Part shown: one piece after another, positions 6,164-33,816 of the stretch
Numbering within the stretch: the stretch's first letter is position 1
How the letters are laid out: every line of letters begins with the position of its first letter
Notes under the pieces: model-generated
The model's input: only the letters and a program-made list of their open reading frames with translations
What the model was told of the DNA's origin: nothing
Database searches by the model: none
Made by a program: the position numbers and the translations under genes
Source: Escherichia phage ECO319P1
Reading direction: 5' to 3' (one strand)
Sequence record: OP172790
DNA: 64,000 nt

Positions 6164-6383
6164 ACTGCATAACGCAACGCTGTATAAACATGACGGTGGT
6201 GCATGGCTTGAAGGTCGTATTTATAACGACACCCATACCCACGGCAATCATCCGTTCCGTGATGGTACTCCAGTCACCACAACTAATGTGAGTGATGAAG
6301 TTCTGGATGGTGGCAACACCTATATGATTACCCGCAACACGACTTATAAAATGGTCGGTGTGGTTCGTGAGGTGGAGTTATGA
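6132..6383 (+). CDS. hypothetical protein
   Basis: 83 aa ORF, start uncertain. Confidence 0.35.
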   Translation: MESPQMNHHAELHNATLYKHDGGAWLEGRIYNDTHTHGNHPFRDGTPVTTTNVSDEVLDGGNTYMITRNTTYKMVGVVREVEL

Positions 6384-7267
6384 TTAAGCTGCTGCTTAAC
6401 AATGTGGAAATGCACTTGAATCGTAAGCGTTTCCCTGATATGGCCACCGGTATTGAAATCGTTGGTCAAGTTCCTGCCCGTGTTGAAGTGGCAACTATTG
6501 ACGCCCGCTTTGATGGAGTTGCAAGCCCAAATGACATGCTCTTTGACATTGCGCAAGCGGTTGATGTGGTGCGCTCTATTAACAGTACTGCGGTTATTCG
6601 TCTGTTTATTCCGTATCTCCCATACGCAAGACAAGACCGCCGCATGACCAAGCATGACGCTTTCAGTTTGAAAGTGTTCGGTAACCTGTTGAATTCATTG
6701 AAGATTAACACAATCATGTGCTTCGATGCTCATTCAGATGTTGCCGCAGGTATCATTGATAACCTGACTGTGATTGGTCAAGACCGAATCATGGGCATCA
6801 GTGAAGTCAGTCACGCATTGACTGTCAACGACCCGCTGATTGTTGCGCCTGATATGGGTGCTGTGAAGAAGATTCACAAAGTCTGTGCGAGCCTTAACCG
6901 TGCTGATTCACCGATTGTCATGGACAAAGAGCGTGAGCCGTCAACTGGTAAGATTGGTAATCATAAGATTATCTTTGGTACTGAGCGTGTTGATGGTCGT
7001 AACTGCTTGATTGTAGACGACATTTGTGATGGTGGTCGTACATTCATTAGCGCAGCGACTGAGTTAAAAGCTGCTGGGGCTGCAACAGTTAGTCTGTATG
7101 TAACTCACGGCATCTTCTCTCAGGGCATTGACGCTCTGTTAGGTGGTGGTATTGATAAAGTATTCACCACTGACTCTTTAATCGACACTGGAACTCTGGC
7201 ATCTGAAAAGGTGCGTGTGTTTAAGTGTAACGATATTCTTTCTGCCTTTTCGATGGGACGTATCTAA
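6380..7267 (+). CDS. adps: PRPP-synthetase-family kinase; candidate ADP-ribose pyrophosphokinase (Adps-like)
   Basis: Prs motifs PYARQDRR, DAHS and PRPP-binding loop LIVDDICDGGRTF; GAGGTGGAG RBS. Confidence 0.75.
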   Translation: MIKLLLNNVEMHLNRKRFPDMATGIEIVGQVPARVEVATIDARFDGVASPNDMLFDIAQAVDVVRSINSTAVIRLFIPYLPYARQDRRMTKHDAFSLKVFGNLLNSLKINTIMCFDAHSDVAAGIIDNLTVIGQDRIMGISEVSHALTVNDPLIVAPDMGAVKKIHKVCASLNRADSPIVMDKEREPSTGKIGNHKIIFGTERVDGRNCLIVDDICDGGRTFISAATELKAAGAATVSLYVTHGIFSQGIDALLGGGIDKVFTTDSLIDTGTLASEKVRVFKCNDILSAFSMGRI

Positions 7268-8932
7268 ATGAAACTGAATCCTCTGTTTGCTGTTGATGGT
7301 TATAAGTTCTCTCATGGCCCGGCCTATCCGAAAGGCACTAACAAGCTGTATGATGTGTTCACACCTCGCAGCGATAAGTATTTCAACAGTCCGTTCTTTA
7401 AGAACTTGGACATTCGTAGCCCGCTGATTTGGGTTGGTATGCAAACCTTCATTCAGCATTGGTTAGTGGACGAGTTCAATGAGAGCTTCTTCAAAGCTGA
7501 TAAAGGTGCTGCTGTTGCCGAATTCAAGGAATTCCTTGATGCTTACTTCGGCGCAGATGCTGTATCTACAGATAACATCGCTGGTCTTCATGACCTTGGT
7601 TATCTGCCACTTGTAATCAAGACGATTCCTGAAGGTTGCAATGTGGATATGAAGGTTGCGACCTGCACCTTCGTCAACACCCATGACGACTTCGCATGGC
7701 TGGTTGGCTATCTCGAAACTTTGGTCAGTGCTGAACTGTGGCCTGCTGCAACTGCTGCCACTATCGCAATGAACTACAAGGCAATCGGCACCTATTGGGC
7801 TGAACTGACTTGTGAAACCAAAGACCACCTGCTGTGGCAATTCCACGACTTCAGTGCTCGTGGTGACATGGGCATGTGGGCTTGTAGCTTAGTTGGCCTC
7901 GGTCACTTAGCATCTTTCCGTGGTACTGACTCGGTGTTCGCACTGAAACGTACAATGACGCACTATGCTGTGCCTAATGTTCCTGCGACTGGCTACCTGT
8001 ACGGTGGTTCTGTTCCGGCAACTGAGCACTCAGTAATGTGCATGGGAGAAAAAGTAAGTGAACTCGAAACGTTCTCGCGGCTCATTCAAGAAGTATATCC
8101 AACGGGAATCGTCAGTATTGTCTCGGACACATGGGATTACTGGAAGGTTATCACCGAATTCCTCCCGACCCTTGCTGACACGATTAATGAACGTGACGGC
8201 AAAGTGGTCATTCGTCCAGATTCTGGTGACCCTATTGATATCATTTGTGGACGCCTATTTACTGACCTGAATGGTTGTGAACATCTGGGTCATGTACAGA
8301 CTGTGCTCATGTCAAAACCGGGTGCTGTTGGTCTGTACAAAGGAACCTATTATGAGTTCAAACGTGCAAGCGAAGAACTTGTAGTTGTGCCTGAGCATGT
8401 AGTTGCTGGCTCAATCGAAATGATGTGGCGTACCTTTGGTGGCACCATCAATAAGAAAGGCTTCAAGGTTCTGAATCCGAAGATTGGCCTGATTTATGGT
8501 GATTCAATCACTATGGAACGTGCCGAAGAAATCTTTGCTCGCCTCGCCGCGAAGGATTTCGCATCTTCAAACGTTGTGCTGGGCATCGGTTCATACACTT
8601 ATCAGTATGTGACCCGTGACACCTTCGGCTTCGCCATGAAAGCAACTTATGGTGAAGTAGACGGCGTTGGTCGTGAAATCTTTAAAGACCCTGCGACTGA
8701 CGATGGCACTAAGAAGTCCGCCAAAGGTCTGCTGAAACACGCATTCATTGATGGCGTATGGACTCAGACAGACATGGCATCTGCTCGTGAAGAACAAGAC
8801 ACTGAGCTGTTGACAGTGTTCCGCGACGGTGTTGCATATCCACATTGCGACATTGAAGTTGTTCGTCAGCGTGTAGACGCTCTGGTCGATGGTCTGGTTT
8901 ACTATCGCATGAAGAAGGAAGGACTGATTTAA
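7268..8932 (+). CDS. namat: Nampt-family phosphoribosyltransferase; candidate nicotinamide ADP-ribose transferase (Namat-like)
   Basis: N-terminus LFAVDGYKFSHG typical of nicotinamide phosphoribosyltransferases; 554 aa; immediately follows the Prs-like gene. Confidence 0.75.
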   Translation: MKLNPLFAVDGYKFSHGPAYPKGTNKLYDVFTPRSDKYFNSPFFKNLDIRSPLIWVGMQTFIQHWLVDEFNESFFKADKGAAVAEFKEFLDAYFGADAVSTDNIAGLHDLGYLPLVIKTIPEGCNVDMKVATCTFVNTHDDFAWLVGYLETLVSAELWPAATAATIAMNYKAIGTYWAELTCETKDHLLWQFHDFSARGDMGMWACSLVGLGHLASFRGTDSVFALKRTMTHYAVPNVPATGYLYGGSVPATEHSVMCMGEKVSELETFSRLIQEVYPTGIVSIVSDTWDYWKVITEFLPTLADTINERDGKVVIRPDSGDPIDIICGRLFTDLNGCEHLGHVQTVLMSKPGAVGLYKGTYYEFKRASEELVVVPEHVVAGSIEMMWRTFGGTINKKGFKVLNPKIGLIYGDSITMERAEEIFARLAAKDFASSNVVLGIGSYTYQYVTRDTFGFAMKATYGEVDGVGREIFKDPATDDGTKKSAKGLLKHAFIDGVWTQTDMASAREEQDTELLTVFRDGVAYPHCDIEVVRQRVDALVDGLVYYRMKKEGLI

Positions 8933-9126: not shown

Positions 9127-10053
9127 ATGGAACATATCGCACTGTTCGGTGTGCTCGCTGTTGTACTCGTTCTGAGTATCGGCATTGACTTCTTTGGTCA
9201 CAAAGATGGTCACGAAATGTCGTTCAAAGAGAGTGCCATGTGGTCTCTGTTCTGGATTGCAATGGGCATTGGTGTTGGCGGCTTCATCTGGTTTGACTAC
9301 GGTGACGTTGCCGCTAGTGAGTACTTCGCTGGCTACGCAATGGAAAAGGCTCTGTCAATCGACAACCTGATGGTGTTCATGGCAATCTTTACGTTCTTCG
9401 GAATTAAAGATAGCGCTCGTGAGCATAAGATTCTGTTGTGGGGTATCGCTGGTGCATTGGTATTCCGTGGCATCTTTGTTGCTGCTGGTTCTGCCTTGTT
9501 CCATCTGTGGTGGCCTATTCAGGTATTCTTCGGTCTGGTCGTAATCTGGTCGGCTCGTGGCATCCTTGGTGGTGGAGATGATGATGAAGAAGTGGACTTT
9601 AGCCAGAAATGGTTTGTACGTGCAATCAAGAAGTTCTATCCTGTTAGCACTGACAATACAACTTCTAAGTTTTTCACTCGCATCGGCGGTCGTCGCGCTG
9701 TTACTGTTATGTTCCTGTGCTTGGTCACTATTGAACTGTGTGACGTCATGTTCTCGTTCGATAGCGTACCGGCTGTTATCGGCGTAACCAAAGAGCCTGC
9801 ACTTATCTACGCAGCCATGATTATGGCAGTGCTGGGTTTACGTGCTCTGTTCTTCGTGTTAGGTTCACTGATGAAGCACCTGACCCGTCTCGACTTCTTT
9901 GTTGCGATTGTTCTGGTGTTTGTTGGTGTCAAACTTATCGCGGCTCCGTTCGGCTATGAGATGGACGCTATTAGTAGTCTGTGTGTAGTCCTCGGATTGC
10001 TGGGCGCTGGTGTGGTAACATCTCTGGCTTTCCCAAAGCGTGAAAGTTACTAA
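9127..10053 (+). CDS. terC: TerC-family integral membrane protein
   Basis: multi-TM with EKALSIDNLMVFMAIF signature; contains 12-mer copy 4. Confidence 0.7.
   Translation: MEHIALFGVLAVVLVLSIGIDFFGHKDGHEMSFKESAMWSLFWIAMGIGVGGFIWFDYGDVAASEYFAGYAMEKALSIDNLMVFMAIFTFFGIKDSAREHKILLWGIAGALVFRGIFVAAGSALFHLWWPIQVFFGLVVIWSARGILGGGDDDEEVDFSQKWFVRAIKKFYPVSTDNTTSKFFTRIGGRRAVTVMFLCLVTIELCDVMFSFDSVPAVIGVTKEPALIYAAMIMAVLGLRALFFVLGSLMKHLTRLDFFVAIVLVFVGVKLIAAPFGYEMDAISSLCVVLGLLGAGVVTSLAFPKRESY
9296..9307 (+). repeat. copy 4 of 12-mer ACTACGGTGACG
   Basis: exact match, read as D-Y-G-D. Confidence 0.9.
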
Positions 10054-10110
10054 GTAATATCTTCGGAGTCGCTCAATGAGCGGCTTCTATAGGTGTTTCT
10101 TGGAGGTCAT

Positions 10111-10317
10111 ATGAAATATATGTTATTGATTCTTATAGCTTTTAATTGTTATGGGTATCAAACTGACGAAACTGATATGCTGTTCAGTGCTGAGGATTAT
10201 GCACAAGAGCGTCATGTTCAGCGAGTTAAGCCTCACAAAGAAGACAAGAAAGTTATTGTTGTAACTCAAGAGGAACTCGACCGAGTCCTCAAATCAACCA
10301 AAGAAGGAAGTAAATAA
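10111..10317 (+). CDS. small secreted or membrane protein
   Basis: start at ATG 10111 after GGAGGT RBS; N-terminal hydrophobic segment. Confidence 0.45.
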   Translation: MKYMLLILIAFNCYGYQTDETDMLFSAEDYAQERHVQRVKPHKEDKKVIVVTQEELDRVLKSTKEGSK

Positions 10318-10892
10318 TGGCTGTTGTTCTCCGTAAAAACGCATCCCTGAACCTGTCCAAATCTGTAGCGGCTCTGACCACTTACCGTTTCGGCCTGTCT
10401 TGGGACGAAAGCGCTGACCTCGATGCTGTTGCAATGGTTGTTGATGAAAACGGTAAGCTGTTCCCGCCTGTTGAAAACAACATGGCATACTACGGCAACT
10501 GCACCGCTAACAAATTCGGCAATGCTGAAAACCCTGTTCCAGGTCTGACTCACTCCGGTGATGCTCGTGACGGCTCTGCTGCTGGCGACGACGAAACCAT
10601 CGTTATCGACACCACTAAGCTTCAGAAAGACCGCATCATCATTGCTGTAACCTCTTACAGTGAAAATGGCCCGGTTCCGTTCGCTGCTTCCGTTAATCCG
10701 GTTGCTAAACTGTACGACGACAAAGGCAATGTACTGGTCGAAGTTAAGCTGGACGAAAACGTTGCATTCAGCACCGCTGTTGAGTTCGTAGAGATTGCGA
10801 AAGTTAATGGCGACTGGACTGTAACCAACCTGACCAACCCGGCTGGTAACTCCGAAAACGGCCTGACCGACCTGCTGGCTGCACGTAGCTAA
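10317..10892 (+). CDS. terD: TerD-family protein
   Basis: GLSWDESADLDA and HSGDARDG...GDDE motifs align with E. coli TerD as recalled; length 191 aa. Confidence 0.75.
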   Translation: MAVVLRKNASLNLSKSVAALTTYRFGLSWDESADLDAVAMVVDENGKLFPPVENNMAYYGNCTANKFGNAENPVPGLTHSGDARDGSAAGDDETIVIDTTKLQKDRIIIAVTSYSENGPVPFAASVNPVAKLYDDKGNVLVEVKLDENVAFSTAVEFVEIAKVNGDWTVTNLTNPAGNSENGLTDLLAARS

Positions 10893-11154
10893 TGTGGGGC
10901 AGCGGTCGCAGGGCTAACAGCATGTCCAAAGGGCGTGTTGGGCATACTTCGATTCGCAGACCCTCAACTGGTACTGAAACCCCGTTCGGACAACTCCGGG
11001 CGGGTGACTTCTTTACCCACAACGGGCGTCTGTTCTTAAAGACCAACCTGATTGATGCTGTTGAAGTCCCTGACGGGTCTGACGCAATGATAGGGACTAA
11101 TCAGTTCTCTGAAGAGTTCTTAGTTCAGGTTGAAAATGTGGTAATCCACATCCA

Positions 11155-11180
11155 ATAATTATTGCACATTATTATAAGGA
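11155..11180 (+). promoter_or_regulatory. phage promoter element (TAATTATTGCACATTATTATAAGGAG)
   Basis: one of five copies of the conserved element; directly upstream of a gene. Confidence 0.5.
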
Positions 11181-11187
11181 GTATCTC

Positions 11188-11283
11188 ATGCAACTTCCTA
11201 CTGGATTCATAGTGCTCCTTGTTATCTTGTATACACTGAATGCACTGCAACAAGAAGGATATCTTTCATGGCTCTCATTCTGA
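11188..11283 (+). CDS. small hydrophobic leader peptide (31 aa)
   Basis: strong AAGGAG RBS straight after the promoter element; overlaps the start of the following TerD-family gene. Confidence 0.3.
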   Translation: MQLPTGFIVLLVILYTLNALQQEGYLSWLSF

Positions 11284-11927
11284 AGAAGAACCAATCCACT
11301 GACCTCGTATCTGATAAAGGTACTCCGGTTCTGAACCTCACTGTTGGTGCTAATTGGGGTATGATTAGCAAAACTGGTGATAGCAAAGCGGCTGGCTTCT
11401 TCAACCGTATGGCATCTGCTCTGGGTGCTGGAGATACAGTGAAAACCGCTGTTGACCTTGACCTGTCAATGGTCTTCGCTAACGCCAAAGGCGAACTGGT
11501 AGACATGTGCTACTACGGCAATAAGCGTCTGTTCAGTGGTGCAGTTCTGCACTCTGGTGACGACCTCGTTGGTGACGACGAGCAGAACGAAGATGATAAC
11601 GAACTGATTAAGTTCGAAGGCATGAAGGTTCCGTTCGATGTTACCACTGTGTACGTTGTACTGAACTCCTTCCGCCATCAGATGTTCGATGAAATCCCAT
11701 ACATCGGCATCTCTTTCTACGAAGGTCTGGTGAACAAGGGCTCCAAAGGTCTGCGATTCGCTGAGGCTCGTGTTGAGAAAGAGAAAGAAGCTGCTGGCAA
11801 AGAGTGCTGCATCCTCGCTAAGATTGTCCGTACTGGCAAAGGCTGGAACGTGACTCCGCTGTTCGACTACACCTCGGACACCAATCTGCGCGACCTTGCT
11901 CGCACTGCAATTCGTAAGCACGGCTAA
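11268..11927 (+). CDS. TerD-family paralog
   Basis: VDLDLS and HSGDDLVGDDE motifs. Confidence 0.65.
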   Translation: MALILKKNQSTDLVSDKGTPVLNLTVGANWGMISKTGDSKAAGFFNRMASALGAGDTVKTAVDLDLSMVFANAKGELVDMCYYGNKRLFSGAVLHSGDDLVGDDEQNEDDNELIKFEGMKVPFDVTTVYVVLNSFRHQMFDEIPYIGISFYEGLVNKGSKGLRFAEARVEKEKEAAGKECCILAKIVRTGKGWNVTPLFDYTSDTNLRDLARTAIRKHG

Positions 11928-13808: not shown

Positions 13809-14681
13809 ATGGTTTGGGCAGTTATTGAAAACCACAAAGGCCAACGGGAAGATTTCCGTAAGCCGTGCTTTGGTTTCATGTCCTACATTCATCAGTGGTA
13901 CGAAACTGACGAGTGGGACGACGAAGAGGACGATTGGGAATACGAATACCTTGAAGGTTTCGAACCCGCCGAACTCAACCTCATGCACTACTTCCCTGAT
14001 TTCCGCAACCATATGCCGAGTCAGGATTTGCCTGAGTTCCGTGAGAAGTATCTGCCTGTGCTGTTGGAAGCTGTGAAGCTTCTGCCTCAGTATTACTCGA
14101 ACGTTGAGTACACTGCTCCAACTGATAGCACTCAGGAGACGTTTACGTTCGCCCTGCAAGATGCGAACATGCAAACGACAATCATCGGTGCTATGATGCT
14201 GCGTAACATTGCTCAGTATTCTGGTATGCGTCGCGTGTTCCGTCTTTGCGTTGACGCTGGCCTTGACCCTGTAACCTGCTTCGTTATGGGTAACATGTAC
14301 AGCAGCAACTACTGCTCGTTTGGTGCTGATGCTGGTAAGTATCTGGCAAACCCTGTTCACTACGGTGACGAGTCAATCTTCCCAGATGAAACTCGCGCTT
14401 GTGATATCCAGGCGTTCATTGACGGTAAGCTCGGTCACATCTACCAAGGTGTGTGGGGCGATACTGAAAATGGTTATGGTCGTTATGGTGAGTATGACGG
14501 TGATACCGCACCTCGCTTTGAACGTACCGGTAATCGTTCAACCATCACTGACACTCTGCTGTTGGCTGATGATTACGTTGACTCACCATTGCTGATGGAT
14601 ATCGAAATCGGTGTTTGTTCATCGGCTCGCTTCAGTGATGAAGAGTTGATTGTTCTTGCTGGTAAAATTACTGGTAAATAA
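13809..14681 (+). CDS. hypothetical protein with acidic N-terminal tract (part of ligase cluster)
   Basis: 290 aa ORF; contains 12-mer copy 5. Confidence 0.5.
   Translation: MVWAVIENHKGQREDFRKPCFGFMSYIHQWYETDEWDDEEDDWEYEYLEGFEPAELNLMHYFPDFRNHMPSQDLPEFREKYLPVLLEAVKLLPQYYSNVEYTAPTDSTQETFTFALQDANMQTTIIGAMMLRNIAQYSGMRRVFRLCVDAGLDPVTCFVMGNMYSSNYCSFGADAGKYLANPVHYGDESIFPDETRACDIQAFIDGKLGHIYQGVWGDTENGYGRYGEYDGDTAPRFERTGNRSTITDTLLLADDYVDSPLLMDIEIGVCSSARFSDEELIVLAGKITGK
14359..14370 (+). repeat. copy 5 of 12-mer ACTACGGTGACG
   Basis: exact match, read as H-Y-G-D. Confidence 0.9.
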
Positions 14682-14692
14682 AGGATAAAACA

Positions 14693-15637
14693 ATGTCAGT
14701 AAAATTCGACGTAGTTTACAAGGATGGATTCAAATTGAAAATGACCTCAATTTGTTTCGGTGTAATGGAGAAGGGGCGCTGGAATGAAATCAACGGGTAT
14801 CGCAATATGCCCGCTGAGAATCATCAGGATGCAGACCAGCGCTTCATTCAGTTCTACACCAACGCTTACATTCACCCGATGTGGGCGTATGAAGAAGGTA
14901 TTAAGCGCGATTGGCCTCGTGGTGAAGATAACCAAGAAGGTCGAAACAAAGCTTCGAAGAACTTCATCAATGAGATGAAAGAACTTCAGAAAGACATGCC
15001 GTTCCTGCAAGGGCTTGTCACCTTCCATCCATTGTTACACGTTGCCCGTGTGCATATCAAAAATCACACGGTTGACCAGATTATGCTGGCATTGTTTTTG
15101 GTACGTAACATGTGCCATTACAGCAACAACTGTTTCACTTACCGCTGGTTACGTGAGACATACAACATGCGTCCAATGCTGGCGGCAGTAATGTGCCATC
15201 AGTTCTCAATGGACTTAGGCTCGTTCGGGCGTCATTCGTTCTCTCCAGCATGTCTGGGTGAGTACAACTGGATTAACCCCCAGACGTTCGGTAAAGAGTC
15301 GTTGCTTCGTTTCATGACCCATACGAAAGAAACAGAATTCGAATATCGTCAGGGCATGTGGAAGGACAGTAAAGGTTATCGTCGTGACGACCACTTTGCT
15401 CGTAACGATGTTATCTTCGACAGCGAAATCGGCGGCTCGAACAAATACTGGAAGATGGTAGCACCATTCAGTATTCCGGGCGACGAAGCGATTAATGCCA
15501 ATCAATGTAAAGACCGTTATAGCGGTATGGTGATTGGTCGCAGTTGGAACCACGAACTGAGCCAAGGTGAAGTAGAGAACTACATCAGTGGTGTTCTCGA
15601 ACTTCTGGCAGAAAACAATATCCCAGCAACTCTCTAA
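14693..15637 (+). CDS. hypothetical protein (part of ligase cluster)
   Basis: 314 aa ORF with RBS; no recognisable motif. Confidence 0.5.
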   Translation: MSVKFDVVYKDGFKLKMTSICFGVMEKGRWNEINGYRNMPAENHQDADQRFIQFYTNAYIHPMWAYEEGIKRDWPRGEDNQEGRNKASKNFINEMKELQKDMPFLQGLVTFHPLLHVARVHIKNHTVDQIMLALFLVRNMCHYSNNCFTYRWLRETYNMRPMLAAVMCHQFSMDLGSFGRHSFSPACLGEYNWINPQTFGKESLLRFMTHTKETEFEYRQGMWKDSKGYRRDDHFARNDVIFDSEIGGSNKYWKMVAPFSIPGDEAINANQCKDRYSGMVIGRSWNHELSQGEVENYISGVLELLAENNIPATL

Positions 15638-15649
15638 GGTAATAAAGAC

Positions 15650-16447
15650 ATGCGTAAGATTTACTTAGGTTCAGACCCAGAGCTGTTTACTCGTGATGCA
15701 AACGGCCTCGTATCATCTGTAGCTGGTAAGCTCGGTGCTGATAAGTATCACAAACGCCATGTCACGGACGACATTCGCATTCAGGAAGATAACGTGCTGG
15801 TTGAATTTGATATCAACCCGCATGGCACATTTGCAGGGTTCAACGATAACATGATGCGTGGTATCGCTGCCTGTAATGACGCTGCGAAATCTGTCGGTCA
15901 CGAAGTTGACCTGACTATCTGCTCTCACGTTTTCAGCGATGCAGAGCTTCGTACTTTCCACAAAGACGCATTCGTGTTTGGCTGTGAGCCAGACTTCAAT
16001 GCCCTGACTGGTTCTCGTAATGCGAAACCGGCTGCTGCGGATGTAGGTCTGCGTACTGCCGGTGGTCATATTCATATCGGTTATAACGAAGACCGCAACG
16101 TTGACTCTGAATCTCAGAAGATTCTGGGTGTAATGTGTGATTACTTCCTCGGTATGCCAGCTATCCTTCTGGATGGTGACGACCGTCGTAAAGAACTGTA
16201 TGGTAAAGCTGGAGCTTGCCGCTTCAAAACCTACGGTATCGAGTATCGTGTTCTGTCCAACTTCTGGACTCTGGACGATAAGATGCGTCTGTGGGCTTGG
16301 GAACAGGCTCATAAAGCATACGACTTCACTGTTGGTGATGCAATGGTGTTGGCGTCAATTGTTGACCCGGAAGAAATTCAGCGTGTCATTAATAACAATG
16401 ACAAGGCAATGGCTGAACATTACATCAAGCTGCTGGAGATTATGTAA
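15650..16447 (+). CDS. predicted COOH-NH2 ligase (GCS2-like, phage type)
   Basis: N-terminal GSDPELF and central GGHIHIGY resemble the phage COOH-NH2 ligase type 2 family as I recall it; not verified by search. Confidence 0.5.
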   Translation: MRKIYLGSDPELFTRDANGLVSSVAGKLGADKYHKRHVTDDIRIQEDNVLVEFDINPHGTFAGFNDNMMRGIAACNDAAKSVGHEVDLTICSHVFSDAELRTFHKDAFVFGCEPDFNALTGSRNAKPAAADVGLRTAGGHIHIGYNEDRNVDSESQKILGVMCDYFLGMPAILLDGDDRRKELYGKAGACRFKTYGIEYRVLSNFWTLDDKMRLWAWEQAHKAYDFTVGDAMVLASIVDPEEIQRVINNNDKAMAEHYIKLLEIM

Positions 16448-17025
16448 TGGCTTTACACGATGATTTTGCAATGTACTATAATGGTACATATGTTGGTTAT
16501 CGTAAAGATGGGGATGTAGTCCCCTTCTACATCGAAGCGGTTGATACTGACCGCTCAATCTTTGATTACTCAGAAGCGTCTGAGTCAGAGATGTTCGGTG
16601 ACCAAGCGCTGAGTGCGTTGACCTTCTACGGAAGTATCGACGGCAACCGTGCAACGATTAACCACGACGACCCGAATCTGGTTCTTGAAATGCCAGATAG
16701 TAAGTACATCCAGTTCCGTGGACGTTACTATTGGGTTCAATGGCGAGCGAACCGTTCCACTAAGAAGGGAATGGGTCAGCGTCGTCTCTCAGGCATTCCG
16801 CAATTCAACCATGAAGTCGCTCGTGCGATGTTCTCGGAGCGGTCTGCACCAAACGTAATCGCAGGATGCTTGTTACGTCAGAATAATGAACTTCACTACA
16901 AGGGTGTGGTGGTCGGTTCAATCAATGGCAACGAAGTTGTGTTGGTTTCCGAAGCTGCTCACCTGTTACGTTTTGTATCACGGGAGATGCAGGAATGCCA
17001 AGTTTCGGTAGCACAAGCGGGCTAA
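16447..17025 (+). CDS. hypothetical protein (part of ligase cluster)
   Basis: 192 aa ORF; overlaps the next gene by 31 nt. Confidence 0.4.
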   Translation: MALHDDFAMYYNGTYVGYRKDGDVVPFYIEAVDTDRSIFDYSEASESEMFGDQALSALTFYGSIDGNRATINHDDPNLVLEMPDSKYIQFRGRYYWVQWRANRSTKKGMGQRRLSGIPQFNHEVARAMFSERSAPNVIAGCLLRQNNELHYKGVVVGSINGNEVVLVSEAAHLLRFVSREMQECQVSVAQAG

Positions 17026-18506
17026 GTGAGTCGTCATTAGCAACCCTCCGCGAAGCGGGGGTGATTGACTCAGAAGGTAACTGGTTAACTGGTAACATGC
17101 CTTCACCTTTTGGTGGAGGTTTGGTTGGTTATAACACTGCTGATGTTATTCCTGACACACCACCACCAAGACCAGCACGGACAAGACACGATGGGCGACC
17201 ATTGCGTTCAAGTTCGTATGCCGACATGTTCGGTGGTCTTCGTGCTCAGCCGGTTGCTATGGATGAAATGCCTGAGACTTCAGGTGATTATTATATTTCT
17301 GGTAATGTAGAGGCCGATTCAGAAATGCAAACTATTGCGCAAATTGTTGGGCACCGTGCAACTTATCCAACTCTTGAGAAGCATCCGCTGATTGTAGGTA
17401 CAAATTTGGCAGGTGTTGAGATTGAGTTGGAGGGCATCACTGCTCGTGCTCCACGTTTCAACTACTGGACAGCAAAAGGTGATGGCTCTCTCCGTAACCG
17501 TGGGATGGAATTTGTTTGTTCATCTCCGTGGGGTGGTCGTGACCTGTACAATGCAGCCATTGAAATTGATGGTTGGTTGTTCACTGCTCAGCCAGAAGAT
17601 ACTTGGCGTTGTTCTACTCACGTACACATTGATGTTCGTGATATGACTGTGCCGCAGTTGAAGCGAATGATTCTGGCATATGCAGTTTACGAACGTATTC
17701 TGTTCAAATGCTCAGGCTTCCATCGTTACAAGAATAACTTCTGTGTAGCGTTGGGCTTCGCTCAGGAGTTGGTAACAACTCTGTCTAATGCGTGGGCACT
17801 TCCTGATAACCAGTTCATCAGTCGTTTGACTGGAAATTGGGATAAGTATTCCAGCATCAACATGCTTCCGATTCAGCAGTTCGGCTCTGTCGAATTCCGT
17901 ATCAGTGAAGCGAAGTGGCGCAAAGGTCGTCTGATTCGTTTGGTTAACCGCTTCCTGTCTCTGAAAGAGATTGCGATGCAGCCATTCGAGGGTTCAGAGT
18001 CTGAATTCATTCAGATGCTGGTCAATACCCCGATTAGCAAAATCATTCGTAAAGGTCTGCCGAAGGTTCTTCCAGATGCAGAGATGGATATCGAGATTGG
18101 TTATAAACTGGCTCACGATATCATTAGCATGGCGGCCTTGCGTCGCCTGTCTATCCGCCCTCTGGTTCCGAATCTGTCAGATGATTCACGACAGTTTAAC
18201 GTTGAAATCTTCGAGCCGGGTTATGAGCATATTATGACTCGTATCAACCGCTCAGATAATAACGTTGAGTTGCCTCGTGAAGCCCCTGCAACTATCAACT
18301 TTAGTTGGTGGTATGAAGTTGAGAATCTGATGCTTCAGATGGGTCATACCTACGAGCGCAGTTGGTTCACAGCATCAAGCAACAACCGTCAGATTCACTC
18401 ACTGTTCGAAGAGTATTGTCGTGAACGTCGTGCTGAGCGTCGTCGTCAGGATGAAATCGTTGAACGTGAAGATGATGAAGACGATACCTCTCCAGAGTTC
18501 TGGTAA
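16995..18506 (+). CDS. predicted amidoligase (glutamine-synthetase-like)
   Basis: GVEIELEG...RNRGMEFV...STHVHIDV pattern; 503 aa. Confidence 0.6.
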   Translation: MPSFGSTSGLSESSLATLREAGVIDSEGNWLTGNMPSPFGGGLVGYNTADVIPDTPPPRPARTRHDGRPLRSSSYADMFGGLRAQPVAMDEMPETSGDYYISGNVEADSEMQTIAQIVGHRATYPTLEKHPLIVGTNLAGVEIELEGITARAPRFNYWTAKGDGSLRNRGMEFVCSSPWGGRDLYNAAIEIDGWLFTAQPEDTWRCSTHVHIDVRDMTVPQLKRMILAYAVYERILFKCSGFHRYKNNFCVALGFAQELVTTLSNAWALPDNQFISRLTGNWDKYSSINMLPIQQFGSVEFRISEAKWRKGRLIRLVNRFLSLKEIAMQPFEGSESEFIQMLVNTPISKIIRKGLPKVLPDAEMDIEIGYKLAHDIISMAALRRLSIRPLVPNLSDDSRQFNVEIFEPGYEHIMTRINRSDNNVELPREAPATINFSWWYEVENLMLQMGHTYERSWFTASSNNRQIHSLFEEYCRERRAERRRQDEIVEREDDEDDTSPEFW

Positions 18507-18565: not shown

Positions 18566-20536
18566 ATGTGTGGGATTGTTCTCGCTGGTGGTAACTTAAT
18601 CGCTCGTGATGTTGAACTGTTCGGTCGTCTACTGTATGCAGATATCGTTCGTGGTGAGCATTCAACGGGTGTGTTCGCAGGGTTTCGTCCTTTTGGTCAT
18701 GACCCAATCCTGAAACTTCGTAAAGCCGCTGTTCCGGCAGATATCTTCTTACGCCGCAAAGAGTTATGGGGTGAAGTGCGTGAACACGCAGTTCCTTCAA
18801 AGACTGTTGCAAATTCTTTCACAACTGCCTATCCGAAATTTATGGTAGGCCACAACCGTTATGCAACTCAGGGTGCAATTAACGATACGAACGCTCACCC
18901 GTTCAACCACGGTAAAATCACTCTGGTTCACAATGGTACATTGACTGACCAGTCTCTGCTCCCAGACCATAAGAACTTCGCTGTTGACAGTGAAAACGTC
19001 GCATGGTCAATCAACAAAATCGGTATTGATGAAACTATTCAGAAATTGAATGGTGCATTCACTCTGGTTTGGCATAACGCCGAAGACAGCACGGTGAACA
19101 TCATCCGTAACGAAGAACGTCCATTCCATCTGGTTGAAACAACTGGTGGTGATTGGTTCGGTGCTTCGGAAGAAGACATGCTTCTGTGGTTAATTAACCG
19201 CAAGAAGTTTGCTCCAACAATCAAACGTCACTTTGAATGTGAAGTAGGTGTTCAGTACGTCTTTGACGTATCCGAAGGCTTCAAGTTCAAGGAGGAACGG
19301 AAGCATACGCTTCCAACCTTTCGCTCATATTCCTACACTGGAAGAACTGGTGGTTATTGGTATGACCAGTGGGATGATGACTATGGGTACGGAAACGGAC
19401 GAGGAACTTCAACAACTTCTCGCAACCAATCCAATAGCCAGAGCTTTAGCTCAAGCTCTTCTAGCGTAACACCGGACAGCCGTTACAAGCAGTTCAATGA
19501 TATGCTGGAAAGCCACGGCATCAACGTCAAAATGGGTGAGCAACTCCGCTTCGAGAGCTTCCAGTTTGACCAGTATCCTAAGTCTCTGGGCAAGGGTAAA
19601 ATGACCGGGTATACTGGCACTGGCGAGTATATTGAGGTTCAGGCTCACGGCACTGATATGGGCATCTTTGTTGAAGGTGCTGAGTACGATGGTAAGATTA
19701 TCTCGTGCTATGAGCAGAATTACATTCTGACAATTATCGTTCAAGACCCAAAACCTGCTCATGTTAATCAGACACTGACCCTCGGTGATTTGGTTAACTC
19801 GGCGGCAAAGGAAACTCCAATTCCTGATACAGGGATTAGTCAGGAAGAGTTGAACGAAGAGTACTACGGTGACGAGGAAGAAGACGACGGCAACGAAGTC
19901 GAAGTAACCTTGAACGGTGAGGTGTACTCAAAAAAGGAATGGGAGGGAAACGACTCATTAAATACTTGCGCAAACTGTTCCTCTCCAATCCCCTTCGACG
20001 ACGTGATTGATACGGTTGTCGATAATGGCGCTGCATTCTGCCATGATTGCGCAAAGCATTACAACCTGTTACCCCCTGAGACGGAGGAGCCAATTGCTCC
20101 TAACCGTTTCGTCTGCCAAAGCTGTGCCAACGAATTGCCGGAAGATTTAGAATCGGCAAAGCCGGGTGTCTGCATTCCTTGTCTTTGCGCTGTAACTAAA
20201 GACAACAATACGGAAATGGCACGTCAACAGTTAATCGAAAAGTACGACCGTTGGGAATCCAATTTGATGCCAGAGGAAGTGGTCACTCCACTGCTTCCGA
20301 AACCAACTGAAGTCTCTCTCGGTGAAATTTCACTGATTCGCAAGAAGTTGAAAAACAACTTGCTGGTTACTGTTAAGCAGTGGATGAAGATGAACAACTG
20401 TGGTTGGTGTCAAAAGCCAATCCAGTGGGTTGATGCTGAAGCCACTGAATTTGTTGGTCAGCAGCCATGCTGTCCGGGATGCTCCAAGAAATTAGAGATG
20501 GGCATCCTTCCAAAACCTATCAATAAGGATAAATGA
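18566..20536 (+). CDS. class II glutamine amidotransferase (Ntn) domain fused to Ser-rich linker and three C-terminal zinc ribbons
   Basis: MCGI N-terminal nucleophile, GHNRYATQG, VHNGTL; CxxC pairs in the C-terminal 200 aa; contains 12-mer copy 6. Confidence 0.7.
   Translation: MCGIVLAGGNLIARDVELFGRLLYADIVRGEHSTGVFAGFRPFGHDPILKLRKAAVPADIFLRRKELWGEVREHAVPSKTVANSFTTAYPKFMVGHNRYATQGAINDTNAHPFNHGKITLVHNGTLTDQSLLPDHKNFAVDSENVAWSINKIGIDETIQKLNGAFTLVWHNAEDSTVNIIRNEERPFHLVETTGGDWFGASEEDMLLWLINRKKFAPTIKRHFECEVGVQYVFDVSEGFKFKEERKHTLPTFRSYSYTGRTGGYWYDQWDDDYGYGNGRGTSTTSRNQSNSQSFSSSSSSVTPDSRYKQFNDMLESHGINVKMGEQLRFESFQFDQYPKSLGKGKMTGYTGTGEYIEVQAHGTDMGIFVEGAEYDGKIISCYEQNYILTIIVQDPKPAHVNQTLTLGDLVNSAAKETPIPDTGISQEELNEEYYGDEEEDDGNEVEVTLNGEVYSKKEWEGNDSLNTCANCSSPIPFDDVIDTVVDNGAAFCHDCAKHYNLLPPETEEPIAPNRFVCQSCANELPEDLESAKPGVCIPCLCAVTKDNNTEMARQQLIEKYDRWESNLMPEEVVTPLLPKPTEVSLGEISLIRKKLKNNLLVTVKQWMKMNNCGWCQKPIQWVDAEATEFVGQQPCCPGCSKKLEMGILPKPINKDK
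19863..19874 (+). repeat. copy 6 of 12-mer ACTACGGTGACG
   Basis: exact match, read as Y-Y-G-D. Confidence 0.9.
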
Positions 20537-20537
20537 T

Positions 20538-20771
20538 ATGGATAATTCAATGAGTGAAGTGAAGGTTTTGCGTCTGGATTCACCTGTGGTGGTTCGAAAA
20601 GTTCCAATGACTGACTTCGGTAGTGATATGCTCCGAGCCATTCGTCGCTTCCAAACTGAGGCGTATGAACGTGCAAAAGGTCAGAAGGTGGAAATCCCTT
20701 ATCCTGTGTGTATTCACATGATGATGTCGGATTACTGCAAGCTGAAAGGCATCCAAGTAACCAATGGCTGA
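20538..20771 (+). CDS. hypothetical protein
   Basis: 77 aa ORF. Confidence 0.4.
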   Translation: MDNSMSEVKVLRLDSPVVVRKVPMTDFGSDMLRAIRRFQTEAYERAKGQKVEIPYPVCIHMMMSDYCKLKGIQVTNG

Positions 20772-21046: not shown

Positions 21047-22246
21047 ATGGCACGTTTAGCAATCTACTCCCACGCTCCTTCTGATTCTGTTAATGCACTT
21101 AAAGCGCACTTATCAGTGGAAGGCGTTGACCTGATTAAAATCAAGCGTCAGAACAGCCGCTTCGCTGGTCGTGAAGGCGATGTAATCATTAACTATGGTT
21201 CATCCTCTTTCCCAATGGAACGTGTTGGTCGTGGTCGTCTGCTGAACAATCCGGGAGCAATCTCTCTGGCTTCTAACAAACTTCGTGCATTCGAGGTGTT
21301 CCAGAACGCTGGGGTTAAGACTGTAGAGTGGACTAATCAACACTCAATCGCTCAAGGTTGGGTAGAACAAGGTGGTATGGTTTATGCAAGAACAACGCTT
21401 CAAGGACATTCTGGTGCCGGTATCGTTATTGGCTACGGAAATCCTGCCGGAGTGGGAGATGCGGGCGACGTACAGGTTACTAGCACCCTTCCTCGCGCAC
21501 AACTGTACACCAAAGCAATCCTGCAAGAACGTCGAGAGTTCCGAATCCATGTAATGGATGGTAAGATTACTTACGTTCAGCAGAAACGTCGTCGTGATGG
21601 TTTCCGTGAGAATGAAACCTACAGCAATCTGGTTCGTAACCACCACACTGGTTGGATTTATGCAACTCAGAACGCTGATGTGTGTGACGAAGCGAAGCGC
21701 GAAGCAATCAAAGCAATCGAAGCTTTAGGTCTGGACTTCGGTGCAGTAGATGTAATCACACGCCGTGGTGAAGCATGGGTTCTCGAAGTCAACACTGCTC
21801 CGGGCATGTCTGGCACTAACCTCGAAACTTATGCAAACAACTTCACTCGCCTGATGAACGGTGAACCCGTTGAAGGTGTAGTGGTTGATATGTCTATCCC
21901 TGTGGAGACGAACAATGATAACCGCAACACCCGTAATGAACGCCAGTCTGGCAATCGCAATACACAACCTCAACCAGAACAACCTCAACCAGAACAACCG
22001 ACGCCAACCCCTGTCGCTACCCCAGCGCCAACAGCACCAGCCGAAGCGCCGGTTTCCTCAGCGACAACCCGCAACACCAATGGTACTGCATTAATTGATA
22101 ACGGTGTTTACAAACTGTTGGTTGATGGTAATGCCACTGTTGGTAAATTCGTTCAAGATTGTGCCCACTTCGAAATTCTTGGCTGGGAGGTTCCGGTCGA
22201 GCATGAAGATGCAACTATTGGGGAACTCCTGTGCACTTTGAACTAA
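21047..22246 (+). CDS. ATP-grasp ligase (RimK/glutathione-synthetase-like) with Pro/Glu-rich linker and extra C-terminal domain
   Basis: GAVDVITRRGEAWVLEVNTAPGMSG ATP-grasp core; QPQPEQPQPEQPTPTP linker. Confidence 0.65.
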   Translation: MARLAIYSHAPSDSVNALKAHLSVEGVDLIKIKRQNSRFAGREGDVIINYGSSSFPMERVGRGRLLNNPGAISLASNKLRAFEVFQNAGVKTVEWTNQHSIAQGWVEQGGMVYARTTLQGHSGAGIVIGYGNPAGVGDAGDVQVTSTLPRAQLYTKAILQERREFRIHVMDGKITYVQQKRRRDGFRENETYSNLVRNHHTGWIYATQNADVCDEAKREAIKAIEALGLDFGAVDVITRRGEAWVLEVNTAPGMSGTNLETYANNFTRLMNGEPVEGVVVDMSIPVETNNDNRNTRNERQSGNRNTQPQPEQPQPEQPTPTPVATPAPTAPAEAPVSSATTRNTNGTALIDNGVYKLLVDGNATVGKFVQDCAHFEILGWEVPVEHEDATIGELLCTLN

Positions 22247-23952: not shown

Positions 23953-24918
23953 TTGAAATTCGAGAAATTCCAATCTCTCGTAAATGAGTCTATGAAGAAC
24001 GTTGGAGGTTTCCTTCGGGATTCCTCCTTCGGGAAACGTAAGGCCATTGTTACCGAGAAAATCCACGGTGCTAACTTCTCTGTCTACTTCGGTTGTAAAG
24101 ACAATGTGGTTGGTATCAACTTCGCTTCTCGTTCTCAGATGCTGTGCCCTGAAACTAACTTCATGAATTGCCAACGCTACTTCACTGAAGAAAAGATTCA
24201 GGAATTGCTGGAACATGCTTCCACAATCATGGCTCTGGACAAATGTGAACTTCGTATCATCGGTGAAATTTACGGTGGCATGGATATCGCTGGAATCAAA
24301 CCCGTTCAGCGAGAAGTCCACTACTCCGGTGATATTGGCTTCCGTGTGTTCCATGCACAAATTGCCAACAACGAAACTGGTGAAGTCTTTGACTACAACT
24401 GGAAGAATGTGAAAGCTCTTGCCAAAGATTTTGGCTTTGAGGTCGCACCAATTGTGGCTGAAGGTCTGACCTTTGAACAGGCTTATGCACTTGACCAGAA
24501 GGTTAAGTCTGCTCTGTCTGACAAAGACCAGATTTGTGAAGGTTACTGTATCCGCGTTGATGCAGATGAAGAAGGTCAAGCACCTTTAATCTTCAAGAAG
24601 CGTAATACTGAGTTCCTTGAAACCAAGGGCACTGTGAAGGCTCCTCAGAATACTGTAGAGCAGACGCAACTCGGTATGGAAGCAATGGCACGTATTGGTG
24701 CATTCATCACACCACAGCGTGTTTCTAACGTCAATAGCCACCACGGTTTCGATAGTCCAAAAGACTTCCAGAAACTGATGGAAGCTGTACTTGATGATGT
24801 GCTCAATGAGTACAAAGCCGAGTATGACGTAGACCTTCGCAATGAGTTGGTCTGGAAAGAAATTAAGCGTTCAGTTGGAGCACAGGTAGTGCCGCTGGTA
24901 CGTGAAGTTCTGCTGTAA
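23953..24918 (+). CDS. RNA ligase-like nucleotidyltransferase (Rnl2-type)
   Basis: motif I lysine in TEKIHGANF; TTG start after GGAG RBS. Confidence 0.6.
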   Translation: MKFEKFQSLVNESMKNVGGFLRDSSFGKRKAIVTEKIHGANFSVYFGCKDNVVGINFASRSQMLCPETNFMNCQRYFTEEKIQELLEHASTIMALDKCELRIIGEIYGGMDIAGIKPVQREVHYSGDIGFRVFHAQIANNETGEVFDYNWKNVKALAKDFGFEVAPIVAEGLTFEQAYALDQKVKSALSDKDQICEGYCIRVDADEEGQAPLIFKKRNTEFLETKGTVKAPQNTVEQTQLGMEAMARIGAFITPQRVSNVNSHHGFDSPKDFQKLMEAVLDDVLNEYKAEYDVDLRNELVWKEIKRSVGAQVVPLVREVLL

Positions 24919-26039: not shown

Positions 26040-26474
26040 ATGAAAGAGTTTATGAACCCAAAAGCTGACCACGTATTCATTGCAACTTATGGCTCACTGC
26101 GTCGTAACATGCAGAACTTCCGAGTCAATGCAAGTGGTGGCGGTGAGTTCATCGGTATGGGTAAGACTGATGATAAATACAATCTGTATCGTTATTCAGG
26201 TTGTTATTTCCCAAGCGTCTCACTGAAACACAGCAGCAATGATAAGCAAGTTGTTGTGGATGTATTTGAAGCTCCGGTGGATGGCATGGAAGGGGCATAT
26301 GATATGCTCGAAGGTTATCCGAGCTTCTACAATCGCACTCAGATTCCGGTGACTCTGGAAGATGGTCGTAGCGTTATGGCGTGGATTTATCACATCGACA
26401 CAGAACAATCTGAACTGATTGAATCTGGTGACTGGTGTGAACATAATGTCGAAGACTACTACAAATCACTGTAA
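26040..26474 (+). CDS. gamma-glutamyl cyclotransferase-like (AIG2/GGCT fold) protein
   Basis: N-terminal YGSL motif and YDMLEGYPSFYNR segment. Confidence 0.55.
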   Translation: MKEFMNPKADHVFIATYGSLRRNMQNFRVNASGGGEFIGMGKTDDKYNLYRYSGCYFPSVSLKHSSNDKQVVVDVFEAPVDGMEGAYDMLEGYPSFYNRTQIPVTLEDGRSVMAWIYHIDTEQSELIESGDWCEHNVEDYYKSL

Positions 26475-33429: not shown

Positions 33430-33816
33430 TTTTGCACCATGAAGTCTGGCATAGCACCACAGATTGCTAATGCTTGGCCTCAAGTCCGTGAAGTCGATAA
33501 GTTGACTAACTACGGTGACAAGGATAAGATGGGTTCATACTCACTTGCCACTGTTCCCGAAGGTTTTGTGTTCAACATCTATGGTCAATACCATTGGAAT
33601 CGGAGAAACGCTGGTTATGGCACTTCTTATGAGCATCTTGGGATGGGGCTGTCTAGCGTCGCTGACTTTATGGTTAATCATAAGGTTCAAACTTTGGGTC
33701 TGCCTCGAATTGGTTGTGGACTTGCTGGAGGCGATTGGGGGATTGTAGAACACCTAATCAAACACCACTTTGCACACACCGACATTGAAGTAATTGTCTA
33801 CGAACTGGAGAAGTAA
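33346..33816 (+). CDS. macro domain protein
   Basis: KLTYKKGCLIAALKNKEVEAIAHQAN aligns with the macro N-terminal G...AN motif; start placed at ATG 33346. Confidence 0.65.
   Translation: MKLTYKKGCLIAALKNKEVEAIAHQANCFCTMKSGIAPQIANAWPQVREVDKLTNYGDKDKMGSYSLATVPEGFVFNIYGQYHWNRRNAGYGTSYEHLGMGLSSVADFMVNHKVQTLGLPRIGCGLAGGDWGIVEHLIKHHFAHTDIEVIVYELEK

Follow-up and report, generated by a model that had tools for sequence, protein, structure and literature searches.

Escherichia phage ECO319P1 (sequence record OP172790) was analysed over a stretch of 64,000 nucleotides, called the window here, which contains a gene (18566-20536, + strand) for a glutamine amidotransferase (GAT) with an unusually built C-terminal tail. 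The question that this gene raises is what such a tail is for. The original prediction, made from the sequence alone, described an N-terminal nucleophile (Ntn) domain of class II followed by a Ser-rich linker, an acidic stretch and three zinc ribbons, and suggested that the tail binds nucleic acid or a protein partner. We observed a tight genetic linkage of the glutaminase to an ATP-grasp ligase and two carboxylate-amine ligases, and purifying selection on its tail, or arm. Partner binding by the arm is a reasonable proposal, and we favour protein docking over nucleic acid: with a probability of about 0.45, the arm would be a multivalent protein-docking device that holds the glutaminase at the ligases or at their macromolecular target. 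The comparisons below are based on a family alignment and profile of 121 sequences, on AlphaFold2 (AF2) models of the tail alone and of the full protein made with this alignment, and on a survey of 80 IMG/VR loci and four others annotated with iteratively built hidden Markov models (HMMs), with counts given out of 85.

Domains of the cassette glutaminase

The protein was divided as follows, pLDDT being the predicted local distance difference test score of the AF2 model.

18566-20536, + strand: whole open reading frame (ORF) of the cassette glutamine amidotransferase, 656 aa (ORF list, Pfam, homologs)
18566-19330, + strand: class II (Ntn) glutaminase domain, aa 1-255, with Cys2, R98, N123-G124 and D141 (Pfam, profile against PDB, Foldseek)
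19331-19477, + strand: disordered Ser/Gly/Tyr-rich linker, aa 256-304 (pLDDT 34-38, composition)
19478-19765, + strand: OB-fold, aa 305-400, N-terminal helix and 5-strand barrel (AF2 pLDDT 94-98, Foldseek, BFVD, conservation)
19766-19891, + strand: acidic disordered linker, aa 401-442, net charge -12 (pLDDT, charge, composition)
19892-20074, + strand: predicted zinc ribbon 1 (ZnR1, "W-Zn-ribbon"), aa 443-503, with W459, C468, C471, C492 and C495 (pLDDT >95, module HMM E=5e-18)
20099-20200, + strand: predicted zinc ribbon 2 (ZnR2, short type), aa 512-545, with C517, C520, C536 and C539 (AF2, Cys conservation)
20336-20500, + strand: predicted zinc ribbon 3 (ZnR3, second W-Zn-ribbon copy), aa 591-645, pI 9.2, with W606, C612, C615, C636 and C639 (HMMs)

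The Ntn domain of the original prediction was clearly recovered, with intact catalytic residues. It matches Pfam GATase_6 (E=1.1e-13), and the family profile retrieves from the PDB the glutaminase domain of GlmS (1xff, E=7e-9) and also PurF and AsnB. The AF2 model of this domain (pLDDT about 95) has the four-layer alpha-beta-beta-alpha Ntn fold, and with this model Foldseek ranks the GlmS glutaminase domain first (E~1.5e-11) within a range of 1e-11 to 1e-7 for GlmS, PurF, the asparagine synthetase AsnS and EgtC (E~2e-8). Residues R98, N123, G124 and D141 are invariant in all 121 sequences, and Cys2 is present in the 102 that cover this position; the other 19 are gapped N-terminally and are apparently truncated gene calls. 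Cys2, R98, N123-G124 and D141 align with Cys1, Arg73, Asn98-Gly99 and Asp123 of GlmS. No fused acceptor (synthase) domain was found, be it SIS, PRTase or Asn-synthase, the C-terminal 400 aa consisting of linkers, OB-fold and ribbons. What is established from sequence and fold is a catalytically competent-looking Ntn glutaminase without an acceptor domain in cis, which would be expected to hydrolyse glutamine.

The label "L-glutamine-D-fructose-6-phosphate aminotransferase" is found on NC_019402, NC_015938, NC_010324, NC_048861 and other RefSeq orthologs. Identity with GlmS would agree with the product names of the GAP52, 7-11, phiEco32 and Privateer orthologs and with the top PDB match of the glutaminase domain, but the C-terminal 400 aa are those of the arm, the SIS/isomerase domains are lacking (Pfam at E<=0.01, whole protein) and the PDB match to GlmS spans only glutaminase residues 69-132. 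As the domain content includes no isomerase the label is refuted, the chance that this protein is a GlmS being negligible, and its use on the orthologs is a systematic RefSeq misannotation.

Downstream of the glutaminase domain, the Ser-rich linker proposed earlier corresponds to aa 256-304, with 12 Ser, 7 Gly and 6 Thr in 49 residues and a pLDDT <40; across the family its length is 17-68 aa. The acidic stretch EEYYGDEEEDDGNEVE was located at aa 431-446 (nt 19856-19903), where it runs from the second linker into ZnR1, and the three CxxC...CxxC ribbons are formed by motifs at aa 468, 492, 517, 536, 612 and 636, in three pairs. All these elements of the earlier inventory were confirmed; it was incomplete as a list, since the OB-fold at aa 305-400 had been missed. 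In the AF2 secondary structure this domain is a barrel of five strands in which a helix separates strands 3 and 4, and its conserved residues are F329, Y337, G344, G348, Y355, E357 and H361. A Foldseek search of the PDB with it gave OB folds for all of the top 50 matches, at modest E values of 4e-3 to 2e-2, including Ta0387 (2k75), RPA, Teb1, CST, the LysRS anticodon domain, S1 and CcmE, and a search of BFVD returned its own family and other phage proteins, mostly unnamed, one of which is annotated as an SSB, a protein that binds single-stranded DNA.

When the protein was shuffled 100,000 times, the number of CxxC motifs never rose above 4 and so never reached the six observed. Each of the 12 ribbon Cys is conserved in 98-118 of the 121 homologs, and substitutions are limited to His at C492 (20 sequences) and at C639 (4); such exchanges of Cys for His confined to ligand positions are the pattern expected of metal ligands. 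The knuckle pairs are conserved, with short paired strands round each knuckle in the AF2 model, and the three ribbons are predicted to bind zinc. ZnR1 and ZnR3 are copies of one module, made of a beta-hairpin, a conserved Thr/Ser, a Trp and the CxxC...CxxC pattern, and an HMM from either copy matches both positions (E 1e-18 to 5e-20). With the ZnR2 model made from the window sequence this ribbon was recovered in only 3 of the 85 loci, but its Cys columns are kept in 106-109 of 121 closer homologs. Profile searches of Pfam, PHROGs and PDB with the OB-fold, the ribbon region and a 37-sequence W-ribbon alignment gave only sub-threshold matches to generic zinc fingers, and both the W-ribbon module and ZnR2 are without a curated Pfam family or a solved structure that matches above noise. 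When the tail was compared with PDB and BFVD by Foldseek, the OB-fold alone was recognised and the ribbons were not resolved.

Structure prediction, which had been proposed as a check, supports this division: AF2 gave five confident domains, with pLDDT mostly >90, joined by linkers below 50. The predicted template-modelling score (pTM) is 0.47 and the linkers are disordered, which argues for domains without a fixed mutual arrangement, like beads on a string.

The gene itself opens with an ATG followed directly by the Cys codon (MCGIV...), with AGGA 8 nt 5' of the ATG. The nearest isolates are the Cronobacter phages GAP52 and A24 (Grimontviridae, Crifsvirus), with 85.8% nucleotide identity across the gene, in which the counterpart is one annotated coding sequence named "glutamine amidotransferase" or, wrongly, GlmS; the same architecture is carried by phiEco32, 7-11 and Privateer. 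It had been conceded with the original prediction that the C-terminal region might prove to be a separate gene, joined through an undetected frameshift. A tail produced in this way, or by an assembly error, or consisting of non-functional low-complexity sequence, is extremely improbable and already essentially refuted. The gene is split in the metagenomic relative L004, where the GAT and OB part stops and ZnR1-2-3 form a 167-aa ORF in another frame, but the window, GAP52, A24 and over 100 homologs, with identity down to ~35%, all have an uninterrupted frame, and every module has an AF2 pLDDT >90. The ratio of nonsynonymous to synonymous substitution (dN/dS) against A24 is 0.08 in the glutaminase domain, 0.085 in the OB-fold, 0.065 in ZnR1, 0.12-0.13 in the linkers flanking the ribbons and 0.31 in ZnR3, and with tail values of 0.065-0.31 the arm is under purifying selection. 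The status of a single gene is upheld by the continuous frame here and in these homologs together with the low dN/dS of the tail.

Some further observations concern the gene and its relatives. In L004 the two parts lie at 9947-11191 (GAT and OB) and 11233-11736 (ribbons), and the split is either a sequencing frameshift or a natural one. In the window, dS against A24 drops to 0.03 at ~19330-19520, in the Ser-rich linker and the start of the OB-fold, compared with 0.4-1.1 in neighbouring parts; nucleotide identity to A24 is about 97% there, and an ORF in an alternative frame (19248-19469) overlaps this patch, which could reflect recent recombination or a constraint at nucleotide level. The ortholog gp83 of phiEco32 (locus L017, 10001-10003) has an ATT start that abuts the catalytic Cys codon, with AGGTGG 8 nt upstream. 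Gene callers that overlook starts of this type may explain some of the N-terminally truncated homologs in databases. The SU10 annotation (63.8 kDa) looks like one such case.

Variation of the arm and composition of the cassette

The composition of the tail varies among the 85 loci while the cassette enzymes stay constant. The following classes were distinguished.

No module recognised by the models: e.g. L059, L060 and L062
Glutaminase and OB-fold only, 372-414 aa: marine group
Single C-terminal W-ribbon, about 385-500 aa: many loci
OB-fold and one ribbon: some loci
OB-fold and two W-ribbons, with or without the short ZnR2: large-podovirus clade (phiEco32, 7-11, Privateer, GAP52 and the window)

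The profile of phrog_4736 stops after ZnR2 and leaves ZnR3 uncovered, so that ZnR3 is an addition in the large-podovirus clade. Throughout the 85 loci the OB and ribbon models match the glutaminase alone, the sole exception being the split gene of L004, and phmmer against 1.84 billion representatives gave 60 matches, all fused to a glutaminase or fragments, with no other fusion and no stand-alone tail. The tail had been called atypical of metabolic amidotransferases and this holds for class II enzymes: it includes no acceptor domain, belongs to no Pfam or PDB tail family and is confined to the phage glutaminase family. The architecture is therefore unusual when set against metabolic amidotransferases, as originally claimed, but not for the gene itself, being standard in a known phage family (GAP52, A24, 7-11, phiEco32).

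Across the family, the median net charge is -21 for the tail and -4 for the OB-fold. The isoelectric points (pI) are 5.2 for the OB-fold, 4.05 for the second linker, 4.3 for ZnR1 and 4.7 for ZnR2; ZnR3, at 8.7, is the sole basic module. The conserved residues of OB-fold and ribbons are core hydrophobics, glycines, zinc ligands, Trp, E357 and H361, and conserved basic character is limited to one column in the OB-fold and one in ZnR3, with essentially none elsewhere in these domains. Judged by conservation columns and pI, the conserved basic or exposed aromatic face of a nucleic-acid-binding OB-fold is not present.

The genes that surround the glutaminase gene form a co-directional block, the order of which is usually kept across the loci.

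13809-14681 and 14693-15637, + strand: two paralogous cassette proteins (A and B), fold unassigned, 290 and 314 aa (each model matches all proteins of the other)
15650-16447, + strand: COOH-NH2 ligase type 2 (PF14395), core gene, 82/85 loci
16447-17025, + strand: 192-aa protein, usually basic, core gene, 83/85 loci
16995-18506, + strand: Amidoligase_2 (PF12224), core gene, C-terminus ...DDEDDTSPEFW, 84/85 loci
20538-20771, + strand: DUF7195, basic, 77 aa, directly 3' of the glutaminase gene (Pfam E=7e-37)
21047-22246, + strand: RimK-like ATP-grasp ligase with C-terminal extension, core gene, 80/85 loci
26040-26474, + strand: GGACT / AIG2-like gamma-glutamyl cyclotransferase, 57/85 loci

All parts of an amidoligase cassette (PF14395, PF12224, glutaminase, ATP-grasp and GGACT) are present in the window. 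The family appears to be restricted to phages: among 185,579 species genomes searched, real relatives were limited to three short contigs and no resident cellular or prophage copy was found, the other matches being weak, limited to part of the glutaminase domain and ordinary cellular in appearance.

Two features of the neighbouring proteins may be related to the arm. An acidic C-terminus with a terminal aromatic residue was found in 13 of 64 distinct Amidoligase_2 ends, compared with 0-1 for three other cassette proteins, and this end may be a docking motif; in the window (18465-18506) it reads EREDDEDDTSPEFW. DUF7195 is present in every complete locus with OB-fold and two W-ribbons and in no OB-only or single-ribbon locus; it was also found in L020, the tail of which matches no module model. 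We also considered a co-variation of ZnR3 with the C-terminal extension of the ATP-grasp ligase, and rejected it as the pattern is not clean across loci.

The A and B paralogs have invariant C21, R138, Q220 and R231 and a conserved PCFG motif; their profiles gave no match in Pfam or PDB and they are possibly an undescribed enzyme. The core protein of ~200 aa is as universal as the ligases and its gene overlaps the start of Amidoligase_2 by 31 nt, and it too was without a Pfam or PDB match by profile. Neither this protein nor DUF7195 carries a ubiquitin- or Pup-like C-terminal tag signature.

Binding partners proposed for the arm

The mechanism that we propose is the following. The gene product would be the subunit that hydrolyses glutamine in a conserved cassette, confined to phages, whose enzymes carry out ATP-dependent amide-bond chemistry. 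This cassette comprises two carboxylate-amine ligases resembling glutamine synthetase and GCS, a RimK-like ATP-grasp ligase and, mostly, a gamma-glutamyl cyclotransferase. With Cys2 as nucleophile, the Ntn domain would split the amide either of glutamine itself or of a substrate of gamma-glutamyl or glutaminyl type. The flexible acidic arm, with its OB-fold, two W-zinc-ribbons and one short ribbon, stands in place of a rigid acceptor domain and would keep the glutaminase beside the separately encoded ligases or beside their macromolecular target, and the release of ammonia or the processing of gamma-glutamyl groups could in this way be coupled in trans to amide-bond formation. The parts of this scheme that we infer are the glutaminase activity, the binding of zinc, the formation of a complex, the partner in it and the end product.

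Protein docking is suggested by the acidity of the arm, the variation in copy number of its modules, its beads-on-a-string geometry, its restriction to one enzyme and the candidate docking motifs. An acidic tail nearly devoid of conserved basic residues argues against generic nucleic-acid binding and for docking to proteins, and a number of modules that varies round a constant enzyme core is expected of an adaptor and not of a catalytic channel. Several points weigh against this proposal. Binding of nucleic acid is a classic role of OB folds and zinc ribbons, the top structural matches of the OB-fold all bind nucleic acid and ZnR3 is basic. To our knowledge, donation of ammonia by a class II glutaminase to a separate polypeptide is not established. 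Some glutaminases, such as those of L059, L060 and L062, lack a recognised tail, so such a tail is not essential for the chemistry of the cassette. Moreover, the correlations seen for DUF7195 and for the Amidoligase_2 motif are confounded by phylogeny, and the contacts between the arm and proteins are putative.

The nucleic-acid side of the original suggestion has to be weighed against docking to proteins. The tail could bind single-stranded DNA (ssDNA), RNA or tRNA, or mimic SSB, and so bring the enzymes to replication forks or to a nucleic-acid substrate for modification. We regard this as unlikely, although RPA, Teb1, CST, the LysRS anticodon domain and S1 are the top Foldseek matches of the OB-fold, phage SSB-like proteins are among the BFVD matches, ZnR3 is basic and the genes for primase/helicase, DNA polymerase and dCTP deaminase have the cassette upstream of them or beside them in the window and the loci checked (A24, L003, UFV-P2). 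The OB-fold, ZnR1, ZnR2 and the linkers are acidic family-wide, with a single conserved basic column in the OB-fold, and many cassette glutaminases lack the OB-fold or the ribbons. Another alternative, to which we give no better odds, is that the enzyme donates no ammonia and is an Ntn amidohydrolase similar to EgtC or Dop, the tail recognising a substrate that is tagged or made by the ligases. Such an enzyme would act on a peptide or protein, from which it would remove a gamma-glutamyl group or in which it would deamidate a glutamine; this fits the lack of an acceptor domain in cis. EgtC, a gamma-glutamyl amidohydrolase of class II fold that likewise has no acceptor domain, matches strongly in structure (E~2e-8), the GGACT of the cassette points to turnover of gamma-glutamyl amines and one genome paper counts the glutaminase as degradative (PMC5498523). 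By sequence, however, the domain is nearer to true amidotransferases (GlmS 7e-9, PurF, AsnB), EgtC not being found at E<0.01, and the small or universal cassette proteins carry no conserved C-terminal Gln, Glu or Gly-Gly tag.

A more specific form of nucleic-acid-related binding is raised by the linker that follows the OB-fold. E. coli SSB ends in MDFDDDIPF. Bacterial SSB has DDDIPF as the conserved motif through which its C-terminus interacts (PMC5872125), and in phiEco32 and its relatives DFDDDIPF stands in the linker directly after the OB-fold: in phiEco32 (L017, 100% identical to EU330206) this linker reads ...TTADFDDDIPFDMN... at aa ~279-300 of the ORF call, and DFDDDIPF linkers also occur in L011, L013, L015 and L003. 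DDDIPF-like motifs were counted in 38 of the 121 family tails, 2.1 being expected from shuffles; they are often followed by Asp, and the next CxxC comes a median of 26 residues later. One could imagine the tail as an SSB-like arm, with a linker that mimics the tip of the host SSB, that plugs the cassette into the SSB interaction network of the host or onto ssDNA, which we consider still less likely than nucleic-acid binding in general, and it is equally doubtful that the cassette in consequence has nascent nucleic acid or proteins of replication or repair as its target instead of the cell wall. The window protein and the GAP52 group are without DDDIPF or an IPF motif, the linker in the window having EEYYGDEEEDD, and in the phiEco32-type homologs the motif is internal, whereas the SSB tip is generally known to bind through its free C-terminal carboxylate. 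In addition, hhalign of the OB profile with the E. coli SSB sequence gave a probability of 0.3%.

Neighbourhood and related systems

After the ATP-grasp gene come genes for a NUDIX protein, a small WYL protein and Rnl2, and then GGACT. Genes for primase/helicase, dCTP deaminase, NrdD, RtcB, DNA polymerase and DNA ligase lie 3' of the cassette, and a scan for promoters and terminators across it gave nothing above chance. Elsewhere in the window, a PRPP-synthetase-like gene (6380-7267) adjoins a NAMPT/NAPRTase-like gene (7268-8932), a pair that presumably resembles the NARP1 (Adps and Namat) anti-defence pathway of NAD+ reconstitution. An Rnl2-type RNA ligase (23953-24918) and an RtcB ligase (33816-34943) are present together with no tRNA gene, which suggests a capacity for RNA repair.

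The phage amidoligase cassette was reportedly described by Iyer et al. in 2009 and by Hardies et al. in 2013. It is present in many phage groups, among them LUZ24-like phages, for which it has been tabulated (PMC3890496), phiEco32-like phages, 7-11, RIO-1-like marine podoviruses and OM43 phages. It has been called a system for gamma-glutamyl amides or unusual peptide bonds, without an experimental function (PMC4819975, PMC5498523, PMC10580990, PMC11706807), and papers to 2025 still cite only the prediction of 2009 (PMC10580990, PMC11706807); we found no experimental work on its function in the searchable literature. Where they refer to it, citing papers credit Iyer et al. 2009 with a cell-wall chemistry for the phage cassette (PMC5871853, PMC3267633, PMC10580990). 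Cell-wall modification, superinfection exclusion and a secondary metabolite are the roles given in searchable papers and are guesses. The early genes of SU10, a phiEco32-like phage, include those for the glutaminase, the ATP-grasp ligase and the GGACT-like protein, and these three proteins were seen by mass spectrometry (PMC4281155).

The protein is a member of a known phage family, with nearly identical architectures already deposited. What is new here is the correction of the GlmS label and the domain map, which adds the OB-fold and the repeated W-ribbon and shows the arm to be modular and acidic. This map offers an experimental handle, the arm being the component most likely to reveal the target of the cassette. 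If a class II glutaminase does feed separate glutamine-synthetase-like ligases via a tether, this would be a new way of organising amidotransferases, and if the SSB tip is mimicked in the relatives, a role linked to replication would be indicated.

Among known systems, bacterial SSB shares with this family the order of an OB-fold, a disordered acidic linker and an acidic/aromatic motif, the last in the phiEco32-type homologs. It differs in that homology between the OB sequences was not detected, the motif of the phage proteins is internal and followed by ribbons, and their OB-fold is acidic by pI. The likeness to MurT/GatD would be functional only: there a glutaminase subunit works in trans with an ATP-dependent ligase and amidates a carboxylate, but GatD belongs to the class I (triad) glutaminases and MurT to the Mur-type ligases, both of unrelated folds and without an OB or ribbon arm. 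EgtC likewise has the glutaminase fold without an acceptor domain, and its pathway also contains a GCS-type ligase; it is, however, a single domain of ~230 aa without a tail and its sequence similarity is weaker than that of GlmS or PurF. GlmS, PurF and AsnB resemble the window protein in fold, in the N-terminal Cys nucleophile, in the Arg and Asp that hold glutamine and in the Asn-Gly oxyanion hole, but they have a fused acceptor domain with an ammonia channel where the window protein has a flexible arm and candidate acceptors encoded by separate genes. The phage cassette glutaminases (phrog_4736; gp83 of phiEco32, phi32_83; those of GAP52, A24, 7-11 and Privateer and the LUZ24-type) form the same family as the window protein, and GAP52, A24, 7-11, Privateer and phiEco32 share with it the GAT-linker-OB-ribbon architecture, the cassette and the gene order, with no essential difference.

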